Source: Escherichia coli (GTDB lineage: Bacteria; Pseudomonadota; Gammaproteobacteria; Enterobacterales; Enterobacteriaceae). Taken from it: a stretch of 64,000 bases of DNA. A program made the position numbers. This document shows positions 6,001 through 18,000 of this stretch, in pieces (position 1 is the first letter of the stretch; the number at the start of each line of letters is the position of its first letter). Where the stretch lies: the NCBI RefSeq assembly GCF_011045215.1, contig NZ_CP049201.1, one strand, 5' to 3'.

Positions 6001-9000
6001 GCATTTTCGCGATTGGGTTGGGAATAAGGGATAAAGTATTGCACTTGGTGATATACTTTAATAACAGGACCTCAACGATATGCGCGTGTTTAAAACCAAA
6101 TGGTTTGCAAGGGAAGCCAGGTCTCATGCAATAACAGATGAAGAGTTGTGCCGGGCCATTTTAGAAACGGAGCAAGGTAAAGCTGATGCACTTGGTGGTG
6201 GCGTTTTTAAAAAGCGCCTTCACCAAAATCGTGAGCGTGCAATTATTCTGGCAAAAGGGGGAAGCAATTGGTTTTACACGTTTTTATATGCAAAACAGGA
6301 TATGTCGAACATCAATAGTCAGGAACTGGCTGGGTTTCGTGAACTTGCAAAGCATTATGCCTTCCTGACGAAAGCCCAGCTAACAGCAATGATTAACACT
6401 AAAGAACTGACAGAGATCTGCTATGACTGCAAAAACTAAATTTAAAAGTCCTGCATTTGAGGCTATTCACAGCGCAGCGGCTGGATTGTCCAGCGTCGAT
6501 GCTATTTCTGCCGAAACGATGCGTACTTTTGACAAAGCCTGCCTGACCAGCGTGCAAGACCTACAACCTGTTGAGATAAAAGCACTGCGGGAAAAATTAA
6601 AAGTGAGTCAGCCCGTCTTCGCTCACTATCTCAATACCAGCGTTTCAACTGTACAAAAATGGGAAAGTGGCGCTAAACGCCCCAATGGCATTTCATTAAA
6701 ACTGCTCAGCATTGTGCAAAAACACGGGCTGGATGTGCTGCTGTAAATAGAACGTAGATAATGCGTCACCTACTGTCTGTTCCGATACCGGACGCGGCGT
6801 GAACGCCTTATCCACTCGACAGGTCAGGCACGGTCTGTTGGCTGATAAGACGAAGCGGTTTTAATGCAGCCAGTGAACGCCCTCGGCAGGCTGAAAGAAT
6901 GCGTAATAGCGCATCTGAAAAGCATTAATATCCTGCATTTCAGGTTCAGTTTCGCGCAGAAAACCCAGCGCCAGCCTGACCTGAGCATCGGTAATCGGCG
7001 CGGCAAGGCGGGCTTTTTGTAAAATCCGATGCCATTGCAGCAGGTTCTGTTCGCTACCATCGACAATGACAATTTGCCAGATGAGCAACACCTGCGCGGC
7101 GTTTTGCAGGTGCGACTCATCCGGACGATGCAAATAACGTAAAAATTCGTCACCAGCTGACTTTCCCATTTGATCGACCATCGACTCCACGGGTACGACA
7201 TCGATATTCAGCCGATCGCTGAGACGGCGAATCGCTTTTCTGGCCCCGGATGTCAGCACCCGAAAACCAACCACAAACACTACCGCCAGCGTGGCGAGCA
7301 TTATCCAGATCATGAGTTCTCCTGCGTAATCAGAACTCATGATATCTGGAAATCCTCGCCAGTTACTAATCCACCAGAATAATCTTGAGTGCAAACAGAG
7401 CTGCGACCACCACCACACACAGGTTCAGATCGCGCCAGCGCCCGGTGCACACTTTCATGATGCAGTACGACATAAAGCCGAGTGCAATCCCTTCGGTGAT
7501 CGAGAAAGTAAAGGGCATCATCACCGTGGTAATAAACGCAGGCACCGATTCGGTAAAATCATCCCAGTTAACGCGCGCCAGGCTCGAAGTCATCAGCACG
7601 CCAACAAAGATTAACGCTCCAGCGGTTGCGTAAGGAGGAACCATCGCCACCAGCGGTGAGAAGAACATAACCAACAGGAACATAACGCCAACCACAACCG
7701 CAGTCAGCCCCGTGCGGCCACCGACTGCCACACCAGAAGTACTTTCAATATAGGCAGTAACAGACGAGGTGCCGATAAACGCACCCGCCACCGAACTGAC
7801 GCTATCAACATACAGCGCCTTATTCATATTGGGGAATTTACCGTTACTATCTATTAAGCCAGCTTTATCAGTTACACCAATTAATGTTCCTGATGAATCA
7901 AATAGGTTGATCAGCATAAAGGAGAAAATGATACCGGCGAGTTCAAGTGTTAACGCGCCGCTCAAATCTACTTCACCAATGACGCCGCTAATATCAGGCG
8001 GAATGGAATAGACGCCGCTAAAATGAACATCACCGAAAAATAATCCGCAGCAGGAAGTGACGACGATGGAAACCAGCACCGCGGCATGAAAATGACGTGA
8101 TGACAATACGGTTATAATAAAAAAACCTAATATACCTAACAACACGCCGTGAGAGCTTAAATCGCCAATCATCACCAGGGTGTCTTTATTGGCGACAATA
8201 ACGCCAGTGTTTTTTAATCCCATTAAGGCAATAAATAATCCGATTCCACTGGTGATACCAATACGTAAACTTAATGGAATGTTGGAGATCATCCAGTACC
8301 GGATACGAAACAGCGTGAGCAAAAATAGCCCAATTGCGCCCCAGAATATCGCGCCCATCCCGGTCTGCCAGGAGATACCCATCGCCCCCACGACCACGAA
8401 GGCAAAGAAGGCGTTCAGCCCCATTGCCGGAGCCAGCGCCACGGGTAAGTTAGCAAATATCCCCATCGCAATACTGCCGATACCGGCAATCAAACAGGTG
8501 GTAACAAACACCACTTTCGGGTCCATTTGTGCCGCGCCGAGAATTTGTGGATTCACAAAAACGATGTACACCATGGTTAAAAAAGTGGTCATCCCCGCAA
8601 TCAATTCTGTGCGGACGGTGGTCCCATGCTGAGGTAGTTTAAATAATCGCGAAAGCGTCCCTGATTCATTACTCACGTAATCGGTATTGTCATTATTCAT
8701 TTTTTTGTCCATTGGAGGAGATTTTATCCCTTGCTTTTGTAAAACAAATGACAACAACGGTTCAGTGATAATTATCACATTTCAATTGCACATTAATGGA
8801 TATTCTTTAATAATCTCGCGACGTTTCTTTATGATAAATAATAATCAAATTGATAAAATCAAAATGAGAAAAATATGAATAATTCTATTAACCATAAATT
8901 TCATCACATTAGCCGGGCTGAATACCAGGAATTGTTAGCCGTTTCCCGTGGCGACGCTGTTGCCGATTATATTATTGATAATGTCTCTATTCTCGACCTG

Positions 9001-15000: not shown

Positions 15001-18000
15001 ATTAGCGAAGGGTGTAATTGCCTTGGCTATCATATGTGGACGTTTATCGATAACTGGTCATGGCTTAATGCTTATAAAAATCGATATGGATTTGTTCAGC
15101 TTGATCTGGAAACGCAAACACGCACGATTAAAAAAAGTGGTGAGTGGTTTGCGACAGTTGCAGAAAATAACGGTTTTGATTGCGAGAAACAAAAATGATC
15201 GAATTAGAAGATGCGGTTATGGAAATAATCGTCAATGCCGGCCAGTCACGCAGCCTCTGTTTTGAAGCGTTACACGCGGCACGTGCCGGGAACTTTGATG
15301 AAGCCAAACAGCTGCTGCGTGAAGCTGACGGTTATTCGCGTCAGGCTCACCATATGCAAACCAAATTGATCGAACAGGATGCTGGTGAGGCCCGACAGCC
15401 AATGACATTAATTATGGTACATGCACAGGATCATTTAATGACATCAATGCTGGCACGAGAATTAGCAGAAGAAATAATTCATCTTTATCAAAGATAATTG
15501 ATTAATGCTTATGAGGAACATCTATTTGATAAAATAAAACCTCTGCTTTACCCAAGAATAAAATAGATAAACCACCTGTTTCGGTAGTTAAAAACAAGCT
15601 GAAACAGGCTGCTTATTATCATAAAACAAATTAATACACACCTTGTATTTATTATGCCCAACGCATAATGAATTATAACGTGTGCGTGAGATAATCATGA
15701 AAAAGATAAATACACTTCCAGTTACCCTGGCGGTTATTGCCGCTTTGTACTCAATATCTGCCCAGGCTCAGGAATTTACTCAGGAACAAATAGACGCCAT
15801 TGTGGCAAAAGCCGTCGATAAAGCATTAGCCGAAAGGCAAGAAAAAATGGATGCCGCGGCAGCGAAAAAAGTGGATGTGATTAACGAACCGGAAAGTGCT
15901 GCGCAGTCTCCGGATATGGCAATTCCCTTTGGCGTGAAATTTAGTGGTTATGCCCGTTATGGGGCTCATTTTCAAAGCGGCGATCAAAAATATGTTGCTG
16001 TAGACGGCTCCTATAATGGTGCATCTGCAATTGGTCGTCTGGGGAACGAAGGTAATGGCGGAGAGTTTCAGTTATCAAAAGCCTTCAAGAGCGATAACGG
16101 CGCAATCTGGGATGTCAATGTCATGATTGATCACTGGGGCGACGAAGTTAACCTGAAAAAAGCCTACGCTGGTGTCACCAATGTTTTGGCATCCAATCCT
16201 GACGCCTATATCTGGGCTGGTCGTGACTTCCACCAGCGCCCGCAACAGGGCATTAATGACTACTTCTGGATGACTCACGATGGTCAGGGTGCCGGGGTGA
16301 AAAATTTCGACATTGGTGGCATCAAGTTTGACCTTGCTACTGTCGCAGCGGTTGAATCCTGTAATCCTGAAGTGATGGAGGATGAGACCAATCCATCACG
16401 CATTACCTGTACTGGCGGGTCAGGAACGGGCGACAAAGGCAATTATGCGATAACGTCCAAAATTCATGGTATGAAACTGGGGCCACTGGATCTTGAGTTG
16501 TACGCTAACTACGGCTTCGACTCAAAAGCGGTCGAAGGTGAAGACAAACTGAAAGCCTGGCAGGGGGCATTTGTTGTAAGCCATAGCAATGACAGCGGAG
16601 TGAATAAAGTCATTGCCCGCTACTCTGATAATTCCGATAACAGTGTTTACAATAAAACTGACGATCTCACGACAATTTACGCCAGTTTTGAAGGTAGTCA
16701 TAAATTTACCCAGCAGGCGCAAATCGAGTATTTACTAGCCTTCCATGATTACGACAACAGTTCTATTAAGAGTGATAACCGCAAAAACTATGGCGTAATT
16801 GTCCGTCCTATGTATTTCTGGAATGACGTTCACTCCACCTGGCTTGAGGCGGGTTATCAACGGGTTGATTATGATAAAGGCGGAGATAATTCCGGCTGGA
16901 AGCTGACGCTGTCACAGAACATTTCTATTGCGATGGGCCCGGAATTCCGTCCAATGCTACGTTTCTACATGACGGGCGGGCAAGTTGATAATGACCGGAC
17001 TGCACGCGTTAACGGTACAAAAGAGGAAACGCTTGACGACTTTAACCTTGGCGCGATGTGGGAAGCCTGGTTCTGACAGGCCACTCACATTGAGTTAATG
17101 CAACCAAAACACGCCTTCTTCTGGCCGGAAGAGGGCGTTATAGCGTATCTGGAAGGCATTAATCTCCTGCATATCTGGCTCTAATTCACGGAGAAAACCC
17201 AGCGCCAGACGGACCTGGGCATCCGTGATCGGCGCAGCAAGACGCGCTTTTTGCAACAACCGATGCCAACGTAACAGGTTCTGCTCACTACCATCGACAA
17301 TCACAATTTGCCAGATAAGTAACACCTGAGCAGCATTTTGCAGATGAGATTCATCCGGGCGATGCAAATAATACAAAAACTCTTTACCAGGCATTTTACC
17401 CATCTGATCGATCATCGATTCTTCGGGTACAACATCAATATTAAGTCGTTCGCTTAAACGGCGAATCGCCCGTCGGGTGCCTGACGTCAGAACCCGAAAA
17501 CCAACCACAAACACCACCACGACGGTGGCAAGCATTATCCAGATCATGCGTTCTCCTGCGCATCAACTTTTGATGATATCTGGAAAACTCCCCCAGGCGT
17601 TAATCTGGTCAAATTGAATAAAAAAAGCCCGGCGTCATGCCGGGCAAAAGTCACCAGTTACGTTTATGCCACTGTCAACTGCTGAATTTTTTTCTCGCGG
17701 CGGATTTTGCGTTCTTCCATCACCGCCACTATCGCCATCAGGCAGATACAACCAATCGCGGCGATATCCAGCGCGGCGAAGGTGCCTGCCCAGCCGGTAA
17801 GGCCGAATACCGGCGTCCCATCGGCAATCATTCCCAGACCTAACTTGGCAAAGCTGTCACCAATCAGGTAAGCAAAGGTGCCTTTAATACCATCGGCAGC
17901 GCCAATCGCTTTTTTAGGTACAAAGCCAACAGCAGCCACACCAATCAACAATTGCGGGCCAAAGACCAGGAAACCCAACGCAAAGAGAGAAGCCAGATAG

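Follow-up and report, generated by a model that had tools for sequence, protein, structure and literature searches.

The Escherichia coli chromosome from which the analysed stretch of 64,000 nucleotides (hereafter the window; contig NZ_CP049201.1) was taken carries two yicN-like genes, both on the minus strand, and therefore raises the question of where the second one came from. A preliminary description of the window had placed them at 6861..7313 and 17095..17547, with the second at the far edge of an inserted PTS/GH1/porin block, and had suggested that the insertion arose from, or created, a duplication of the yicN region. Both ORFs proved exact, with 150 codons for amino acids each, and the insertion is real: the order in K-12 is nepI-yicN-adeQ-ade-uhpT, with a single yicN, and relative to it the window holds an extra 6,980 bp, bounded by the ade stop codon and the uhpT terminator. 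This insert comprises a truncated yicS, a LacI-family regulator, PTS IIB/IIC, a GH1 hydrolase, PTS IIA, a LamB-type porin and a yicN (yicN2) which indeed lies at its right-hand, uhpT-proximal edge. The relevant features are as follows:

6861..7313, minus strand: yicN1, the resident E. coli yicN; ORF of 150 aa, DUF1198, in the canonical slot between nepI and adeQ
7366..8700, minus strand: adeQ, resident adenine permease; ORF colinear with K-12 (97.7%), annotated in carrier strains
8875..10641, plus strand: ade (adeD), resident adenine deaminase; ORF whose TGA stop is created at the left junction
10636..10648, no strand: left junction repeat GAATGAAAAAAAG; its GAAT consists of the final ade codon and the first stop base
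10637..10837, plus strand: yicS' fragment of fergusonii type: the 3' 200 bp of the gene, without the N-terminus
10874..11830, minus strand: LacI-family transcriptional regulator; NCBIfam LacI-family matches, all below equivalog cut-offs, and RefSeq annotation in carriers
12122..12436, plus strand: PTS EIIB, lactose/cellobiose family (TIGR00853, E = 3e-26)
12449..13780, plus strand: PTS EIIC, lactose/cellobiose family (TIGR00410, 367 bits against a cut-off of 236)
13801..15198, plus strand: GH1 glycoside hydrolase (TIGR03356, E = 1e-124)
15195..15497, plus strand: PTS EIIA, lactose/cellobiose family (TIGR00823, E = 2e-35)
15697..17076, plus strand: LamB-family carbohydrate porin (NF006860, E = 2e-38)
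17095..17547, minus strand: yicN2, an E. fergusonii-type yicN and very probable xenolog; intact ORF, 150 aa
17548..17586, minus strand: 5' leader of yicN2 including the ribosome-binding site, beyond which homology to other yicN loci and to E. fergusonii ends
17587..17616, no strand: right-end 30 nt ACTCCCCCAGGCGTTAATCTGGTCAAATTG, seen only in island-carrying E. coli
17616..17627, no strand: right junction repeat GAATAAAAAAAG, the very sequence that strain A30 has at its empty site
17627..17645, minus strand: intrinsic terminator of uhpT (hairpin and T-run), identical to K-12; now upstream of yicN2, on the same strand
17664..19055, minus strand: uhpT, resident right flank; 98.8% identical to K-12 from 17617 onward

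The GC content of the island is 46.9%, against 50-52% in the flanks. Among the PTS and hydrolase assignments EIIC alone passes its cut-off; IIB, IIA and GH1 matched family models with scores below the equivalog or subfamily cut-offs. Homologs of the porin that are 99% identical in E. fergusonii carry Pfam PF02264.

The two yicN copies were then compared with each other. The longest yicN1 ORF reaches 7418 through a GTG, and the RefSeq-style ATG at 7313 gives the 150-aa product. This product differs from K-12 YicN (WP_001295241.1, DUF1198 in the RefSeq annotation) by 1 aa (98.0% nt, 99% aa identity), and it was through this identity that yicN1 was assigned to the family. YicN2 is a full-length DUF1198 protein in its own right (PF06711, E = 4e-72, model positions 1-143 of 143). 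The function of YicN, a single-span membrane protein of about 15 kDa that co-purifies with SecYEG, is not known (PMC8082313). BLASTP aligned YicN1 and YicN2 without gaps over 128/150 identities (85%, E = 6e-89), in agreement with the earlier statement that the proteins are similar but non-identical. A nucleotide alignment, proposed at that time as a way to define the boundaries of a duplication, found none: the copies are 79.6% identical between 6861-7352 and 17095-17586, that is, over the coding sequence and about 40 bp of 5' leader, and in this DNA comparison homology ended at the stop codon on one side and about 40 bp before the start codon on the other. Synonymous sites are saturated (dS 1.09-1.23), with a dN of about 0.10 and a dN/dS of 0.09; at a dS of about 1.1, the copies are as far apart as Escherichia is from Citrobacter or Salmonella. 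In the yicN tree, yicN1 groups with E. coli and yicN2 clusters with E. fergusonii-type sequences; the yicN genes of the sampled non-fergusonii Escherichia representatives, among them E. coli, E. albertii and E. whittamii, form a clade to which yicN2 does not belong. The copies are thus not mutual closest relatives, and they have neither the low synonymous divergence nor the duplicated flanks expected of true paralogs.

The closest known counterpart of the insert was the yicS-yicN interval of E. fergusonii, with 98.0% nucleotide identity over 6,953 bp in ATCC 35469 (CU928158.2, approximately 4.056-4.064 Mb). Positions 10637-17587 of the window were colinear with four E. fergusonii genomes, ATCC 35469 included, at 97.9-98.1% identity, and gene order and orientation from yicS through yicN were the same. 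In E. fergusonii the native order is yicL-like EamA, full-length yicS, lacI, IIB, IIC, GH1, IIA, porin, yicN, ade and uhpT; that is, the interval lies in synteny between the yicL-like EamA gene and ade and contains the only yicN, whereas in the window yicS is truncated, the segment stands between ade and uhpT, and yicN1 is also present. yicN2 is 97-98% identical to that sole native yicN, the proteins differing at 4/150 residues, and the yicS' fragment, annotated in carriers as a partial YicS pseudogene, is 97-97.5% identical to the yicS of L085 (E. fergusonii-type) and L016, against 81% for K-12 yicS. Identity to E. fergusonii decreased from the insert (98.0%) to the flanking core DNA (95.7% in uhp and about 93% in ade). 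The window segment differs further in ending with 30 nt absent from E. fergusonii, since in the genomes examined of that species yicN is preceded by a different 285-bp spacer without any counterpart of 17587-17616.

Across Enterobacteriaceae the same cassette is as a rule found between yicS and nepI-yicN, as in Citrobacter, Enterobacter, Leclercia, Kosakonia, Phytobacter and other genera, which indicates that the donor layout is the syntenic one and the position in E. coli is ectopic. In the Citrobacter freundii complex, Enterobacter, Leclercia, Kosakonia and Phytobacter, the order is uhpT, (ade-adeQ), yicN, nepI, porin, IIA, GH1, IIC, IIB, lacI and yicS, with nepI standing between yicN and the porin gene. 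Their cassette proteins are 80-95% identical to those of the window, but DNA identity is just 75-83%, so that these genera are not the donors. A donor of unknown genus, suggested by two earlier searches, was dropped once a porin protein search revealed E. fergusonii. In the scan of GTDB species representatives the identity of yicN genes to yicN2 did not exceed 89%, E. fergusonii being absent from the 80 loci kept, and a YicN2 protein search returned matches of 95-97% labelled E. coli followed, after a gap, by matches of at most 88%. Between E. coli and E. fergusonii the segment differs by about 2%, and the sequences of the two species form sister groups, neither nested in the other; the true donor may therefore have been an unsampled relative of present-day E. 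fergusonii.

Comparison of the ade-uhpT junction across genomes, as the preliminary description had recommended, showed how rare the arrangement is. The full insert was found in 24 of 5,426 complete E. coli genomes and was absent from 5,396 of the 5,420 that matched the region. A two-copy ancestral state was looked for in reference genomes, and each of the 80 species-representative loci had one yicN and none had two; a single yicN is therefore the norm, as had been expected. The site is empty in K-12, in strain A30 and in the other Escherichia species representatives, and A30 shares the iatC-nepI-TA haplotype of the window. Junctions and gene order were common to the six carriers inspected. 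Carrier isolates came from cattle, pigs, baboons, water and produce. Insert diversity among carriers reached 1.8%, as high as that of the flanks, and the insertion event must therefore be old; this diversity fits a single gain followed by recombinational spread and a single gain followed by many losses equally well. Decay after insertion was seen in 14EC033 (an IS1-mediated deletion) and in LH50-c (a translocation).

Taken together, donor synteny, a patchy distribution with an intact empty site and an insert closer to the donor than its flanks are what is expected of a xenologous islet. Since the insert follows the E. fergusonii yicS-to-yicN interval colinearly, at 98.0% identity, yicN2 is very probably a xenolog, a passenger on a 6,980-bp E. 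fergusonii-type segment inserted ectopically in the E. coli chromosome. The donor segment would have run from the middle of yicS, through the LacI-regulated PTS/GH1/LamB-type porin cluster, to yicN with about 70 bp of upstream leader, and would have come to lie with the ade stop codon immediately on one side and the uhpT terminator immediately on the other. On this reading, yicN2 came along because yicN adjoins the cassette in the donor, and the genome owes its second yicN solely to the donor's own copy having been part of the imported segment. What the preliminary description said of the insertion, of the edge position and of single-copy yicN as the norm thus stands, and its duplication mechanism does not: the roughly 20% nucleotide difference, the saturated dS, the missing flank homology and the E. 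fergusonii match all contradict it. The two "yicN paralogs" that might be annotated in carrier E. coli are accordingly better described as a resident gene and an E. fergusonii xenolog.

How the segment entered was examined at the junctions, both of which are explained by the A30 empty site, since it reads CACGGAATAAAAAAAGCCCGG. The ade stop is TAA in K-12 and A30, and the G of the window's TGA is derived from yicS. At the ade-side join the recipient GAATAAAAAAAG and the donor yicS AATGAAAAAAAG share an A-tract microhomology; AATGAAAAAAAG in the left junction is native internal sequence of the E. fergusonii-type yicS, and the flanking 12/13-nt repeat is thus partly native donor sequence. No recipient base was lost. 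Within the insert every ORF is a cassette gene and neither transposase nor integrase was found, its ends carry no terminal inverted repeats, and no tRNA/att site marks it as an island borne by a mobile element. Given the intact recipient sequence and the lack of mobile-element machinery, the most likely step is a microhomology-mediated illegitimate recombination, in which DNA incoming from an E. fergusonii-type donor would have been joined on the ade side through the A-tract. Illegitimate recombination of foreign DNA, microhomology-mediated or homology-facilitated, is reportedly the type of event described by de Vries and Wackernagel. Like such events, the joint here shows a microhomology that is short and A/T-rich, lacks recombinase genes and element ends and cost the recipient no sequence. 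A homologous anchor was not identified for the primary insertion; the secondary copy in LH50-c is a clearer case of anchor plus microhomology. Recombination anchored in uhpT was not supported, since E. fergusonii has ade between yicN and uhpT and such an event would have duplicated ade; in genomes without ade, the uhpT-yicN spacers match that of the window only as far as the terminator. As for 17587-17616, fuzzy matching over all loci found it in island-carrying E. coli alone, an exact scan of metagenome contigs retrieved only another carrier, the best local alignments elsewhere scored no better than shuffled controls, and such likeness as there was to the 3' end of adeQ, the 5' part of yicS or an internal stretch of yicN did not exceed chance.

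Other origins of the two-copy layout were weighed against the import of a donor segment. That two same-strand homologs about 10 kb apart bracket the inserted block is what an in-situ segmental duplication of the resident yicN region at cassette insertion, followed by divergence, would produce. Nevertheless, a dS of about 1.1 contrasts with the roughly 2% by which E. coli strains differ in this region, flank homology is missing, and yicN2 both matches E. fergusonii yicN at 98% and adjoins 6.5 kb of DNA of the fergusonii type. Gene conversion was also considered, and an alignment of 9 yicN2-type and 8 yicN1 alleles displayed scattered shared variants and no converted tract. Given the synonymous divergence and the donor match, we regard duplication as refuted for practical purposes, its chance being vanishingly small. 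A tandem duplication followed by deletion and replacement would require at least three events with coincident end points in place of one insertion, and was discarded as unparsimonious by reasoning alone. It is also very unlikely that the two-copy layout is an old polymorphism of E. coli and the block was deleted from most strains through the 12/13-nt repeats. The direct repeats GAATGAAAAAAAG and GAATAAAAAAAG could mediate precise excision, insert and flank diversity are comparable among carriers, and the secondary decay in 14EC033 and LH50-c would fit; yet the site is empty in all other Escherichia species representatives and in more than 99% of complete E. coli genomes, and the fusion of a truncated yicS with the ade stop codon means that the layout began as an ectopic insertion. 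Moreover, the scar GAATGAAAAAAAGCCC (the empty site with the yicS-derived G), a residue that some excisions should leave, occurred in 0 of 5,405 genomes, its best matches being one base shorter; A30, the one inspected, reads GAATAAAAAAAG.

Two further readings, each improbable, accept a foreign segment and differ in how it would have been integrated. In a Campbell-type integration, a circularised donor segment would have entered through one reciprocal crossover, located in the AAT(G)AAAAAAAG microhomology; this would explain the 12/13-nt repeat at both ends and two joints on the same 12 nt without recipient loss, and a crossover within the AAT of yicS and an A30-type site would yield precisely the left joint observed. 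However, it predicts yicS 5' sequence abutting the right repeat, where the 30 nt present align no better than shuffled controls, and it involves no known circular form or recombinase. With a similarly low chance, a plain piece of sister-species chromosome may have circularised and entered by one crossover at the 12-nt A-tract, which coincides both with the ade stop/uhpT terminator T-run and with a motif inside yicS, with yicN serving repeatedly thereafter as a portable homology anchor. This short, conserved gene would in that case help to move the cassette among Escherichia lineages, an idea supported by a chimeric yicN in L016 and by the anchor-plus-microhomology copy in LH50-c. The islet is a well explained, ordinary horizontal gene transfer which neither opens nor closes a major question. 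No published account of it was found in the literature. Its interest lies in being a clean, datable case of E. fergusonii genes passing into E. coli, with a metabolic cassette at an ectopic site without a mobile element and a redundant passenger gene that appears to be relaxing visibly afterwards.

The cassette itself combines EIIC, EIIB and EIIA of the Lac family with a GH1 phospho-glycosidase, as do lactose/cellobiose-family PTS operons for beta-glucoside utilisation. The GH1 protein also matched the 6-phospho-beta-glucosidase and 6-phospho-beta-galactosidase subfamilies, all matches being below cut-off, and is probably a 6-phospho-beta-glucosidase. The cassette probably confers beta-glucoside uptake and hydrolysis on its carriers: the porin would admit the sugar, EIIBCA would phosphorylate it during transport and the GH1 enzyme would cleave the phospho-sugar, with the LacI-type protein as the putative repressor of the cassette genes. 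As to the substrate, profile searches gave zero equivalog-level matches and no literature was found. The E. coli beta-glucoside systems bgl, asc, chb and the strain-specific bgc are variably present or cryptic across strains, and some have a dedicated LamB-type porin (BglH). They share with this cassette the logic of a PTS permease plus a phospho-beta-glucosidase; the cassette differs from them in its LacI-family regulator, its three-protein lactose/cellobiose-family EII, its chromosomal site and its origin. A gain of growth on beta-glucosides, if it occurred, may affect the ecology of the carrier strains.

Finally, we considered the state of yicN2 after transfer. The 70-bp spacer that separates the gene from the uhpT terminator upstream showed no sigma-70 consensus. 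Eight E. coli alleles of yicN2 contained 17 nonsynonymous and 9 synonymous variants, plus one change of the start codon from ATG to ATA, and mean pairwise dN/dS was about 0.48 among yicN2 alleles against about 0.04 among yicN1 alleles. From these allele counts, yicN2 appears to be under relaxed constraint in E. coli, as would befit a redundant passenger, intact yet drifting. The four E. fergusonii yicN alleles were almost without amino-acid change.

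The preliminary description had suggested, for two yicN genes in the window, a duplication of the yicN region, tied to an inserted PTS/GH1/porin block. Its account of the sequence was right: 6861-7313 and 17095-17547 are each an intact minus-strand ORF of 150 codons. The two are separated by adeQ, ade and a block that K-12 is without:

6861-7313, minus strand: yicN1, the resident copy, 150 codons, intact, 99% identity to K-12 YicN
10637-10837, insert start: yicS fragment (3' 200 bp), 81% identity to K-12 yicS
in the block, minus strand: LacI-family regulator
in the block, plus strand: PTS EIIB, EIIC, GH1 hydrolase, EIIA and LamB-family porin, in this order
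17095-17547, minus strand: yicN2, the second copy, 150 codons, intact, DUF1198/PF06711 over its full length

The two proteins were identical at 128 of 150 positions (85%, no gaps, E = 6e-89) and the genes at 79.6% of nucleotides. Only the CDS and a leader of ~40 bp could be aligned (6861-7352 with 17095-17586), the DNA alignment revealing no homology beyond these on either side of the two copies. Nei-Gojobori estimates (dS 1.09-1.23, dN ~0.10, dN/dS ~0.09) indicated synonymous saturation under long purifying selection; for contrast, E. coli strains differ by ~2% in this region. In a neighbour-joining tree of 27 Enterobacteriaceae loci, yicN1 fell within the Escherichia clade (98% identity to K-12, 88% to E. 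albertii) and yicN2 formed a separate deep branch, with identities of 77-80% whether compared with Escherichia, Salmonella or Citrobacter. No tract of gene conversion linking the two copies was seen. On these comparisons neither gene is a duplicate of the other; what survives of the preliminary reading is the insertion, which has the second yicN at its edge. As a separate observation, codon 137 of yicN1 (6903-6905) encodes Tyr in the window (RYYAFF) and Asn in all other yicN1 alleles examined (RYNAFF).

We also considered whether two copies could be ancestral, the state that the preliminary description had set against its own reading. One genome per GTDB species was scanned with YicN2 as query, 80 of 104 yicN loci were kept and the window proteins were mapped onto these 80. 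Two yicN genes less than 10 kb apart occurred at none of the 80 species-representative loci, where the gene was single-copy, and were seen in island-carrying E. coli only, which removes an ancestral two-copy state and the duplication idea too. The cassette itself proved a normal resident near yicN in Citrobacter, Enterobacter, Leclercia, Lelliottia, Kosakonia, Phytobacter and others, in the order uhpT, (ade-adeQ), yicN, nepI, porin, IIA, GH1, IIC, IIB, lacI, yicS. K-12 has lost the cassette and its nepI therefore abuts yicS.

Apart from 10653-17616, the window was colinear with K-12 at 97-99% identity. The insert begins with the yicS fragment, called a partial YicS pseudogene by RefSeq in carrier strains, and ends with yicN2 plus ~70 bp of upstream sequence; its GC content is 46.9% vs 50-52% in the flanks, and no transposase, integrase or terminal inverted repeats were found in it. 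EIIC cleared the cut-off curated for the lactose/cellobiose PTS subfamily; IIB, IIA, GH1, porin and LacI-family regulator matched their families, yet under equivalog cut-offs. The cassette would most likely serve beta-glucoside uptake and hydrolysis, the porin importing the sugar, the PTS coupling phosphorylation, the GH1 phospho-glycosidase hydrolysing the product and the LacI-type protein acting as repressor.

At the 80 kept loci, which do not include E. fergusonii, no yicN exceeded 89% identity to yicN2. The YicN2 scan was without E. fergusonii despite its 97% identical YicN, and this donor surfaced only through a porin protein search, which returned 99% identical proteins labelled E. fergusonii, type strain ATCC 35469 included. 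Gene order in that species is RhuM-like gene, EamA (yicL-like), full-length yicS, lacI, IIB, IIC, GH1, IIA, porin, yicN, a 285-bp spacer, ade, uhpT and uhpCBA, with neither nepI nor adeQ in this context. Window positions 10637-17587 aligned with four E. fergusonii genomes at 97.9-98.1% without rearrangement, the flanking core being less similar (uhp 95.7%, ade ~93%), and YicN2 differed from E. fergusonii YicN at 4 of 150 residues. The structures give the direction of transfer, which was into E. coli: E. fergusonii has the whole interval, at the place expected from pan-enterobacterial synteny, whereas the E. coli version is cut inside yicS and lies at an ectopic site. Both versions form sister groups ~2% apart, so that the donor was either E. 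fergusonii or a near relative that may be unsampled, and the event was not very recent. E. fergusonii and E. coli ade (window 8872-10647) share 95-98% identity across the 3' 1.5 kb of the gene, identity falls abruptly to 76-78% over the first ~270 nt, E. coli homology stops upstream of this 5' part, where adeQ is absent, and yicN and yicS are likewise only ~80% identical. The whole E. fergusonii stretch from the ade 5' part to yicS thus appears to be an older replacement whose source lay beyond the genus.

Strain A30 shares the iatC, nepI, toxin-antitoxin and yicN haplotype of the carriers and lacks the insert, its empty site reading CACG-GAATAAAAAAAG-CCCGG. In the window the left joint (10636-10648) reads CACG-GAATGAAAAAAAG-ACCGTATT and the right joint (17616-17627) GGTCAAATT-GAATAAAAAAAG-CCCGG. 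The insertion amounts to 6,980 bp, with 0 recipient bases missing. Since AATGAAAAAAAG is internal and native to fergusonii-type yicS (GGCAAATGAAAAAAAGACC), the left joint is a crossover within an 11/12-nt microhomology, through which the TAA stop of ade incidentally became TGA. The 30 nt at the right end (17587-17616) were found in island carriers only, and no source could be assigned to them better than shuffled-control level. If a circularised fragment had entered by one Campbell-type crossover, the precision of the insertion and the absence of loss would be explained, but the right end should then show yicS 5' sequence, and none is recognisable there. Microhomology-mediated illegitimate recombination would have brought the insert in, which adds a case to a familiar class of events in which illegitimate recombination carries a small metabolic islet from one sister species to another.

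Of 5,426 complete E. coli genomes, 24 have the full 16-kb arrangement, and the insert alone was found in the same 24 plus three variants. Gene order and junctions were identical in the six carriers inspected, which argues for one insertion event, and insert diversity among carriers (98.2-99.7% identity) was similar to that of the flanks, indicating an old, rare polymorphism. In the divergent Escherichia species representative SCPM-O-B-8794 (labelled 'E. coli'), the cassette lies at the syntenic site, nepI is absent and yicN (5086-5538) is chimeric, E. coli-type for ~400 nt and fergusonii-type from a crossover ~55 nt before the stop codon, the latter part running on into cassette and yicS; this chimera shows that yicN itself can act as a crossover point.

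Later rearrangements were also observed. In 14EC033 (locus positions 4863-8545), IS1 sits between truncated tnaA and truncated porin, the associated deletion extends from tnaA to the porin 5' end, so that nepI and yicN1 are gone together with adeQ, ade and the greater part of the cassette, and imported yicN2 is the sole yicN remaining; H57 CUWW06 gave a similar partial match. LH50-c (6668-13430) carries ade'(180 nt)-yicS'-cassette at another locus, with the same ade/yicS joint, 95.8% identity to the window and no yicN2. On its left a 150-nt piece of a different porin gene meets ade' at GCTGGCCGAGCAA, and the final ~100 nt of its porin diverge. A resident porin homolog seems to have received this copy by recombination, with the GCTGGCCGAGCAA microhomology used at one end and porin homology at the other, which looks like homology-facilitated illegitimate recombination.

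YicN is described as an inner-membrane protein of ~15 kDa with a single span, found to co-purify with SecYEG and assigned no function (PMC8082313). yicN2 is intact, equal in length to yicN1 and still has its ribosome-binding site. The uhpT terminator, on the same strand, immediately precedes it, and the 70-bp spacer showed no sigma-70 consensus, which makes expression of yicN2 uncertain. Across eight E. coli yicN2 alleles, 17 variants were nonsynonymous and 9 synonymous, a count that includes a start codon changed from ATG to ATA; mean pairwise dN/dS was ~0.48, vs ~0.04 for yicN1 in the same strains; four E. fergusonii yicN alleles showed nearly no amino-acid change. Small as these counts are, they fit a redundant passenger under relaxed constraint.

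Several neighbouring features also vary. Between nepI and yicN1, a toxin-antitoxin-like pair (6080-6746, plus strand) comprises a 119-aa RelE/ParE-type toxin gene overlapping that of a 107-aa HTH antitoxin with MqsA/NadS-like matches; it is absent in K-12 and present in all inspected carriers, some non-carriers (A30) and a few other genera. Downstream of nepI, window 1-4667 (also 1-2866 of locus L001) is the 3' part of iatC/air, a giant gene (8-12 kb in carriers) for an inverse-autotransporter adhesin, which takes the place of yicS-nlpA in K-12; apart from the imported fragment, the window contains no yicS sequence. For XJ34, the annotation gives adeQ as a pseudogene containing an internal stop. 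Between uhpT and uhpC, a palindromic element of ~140 bp (19069-19209), lacking in K-12 and present in only some carriers, resembles an ERIC/IRU repeat (core ...CCCGGGAGCATAGTGAACTATGTGACCGGGAGG...).
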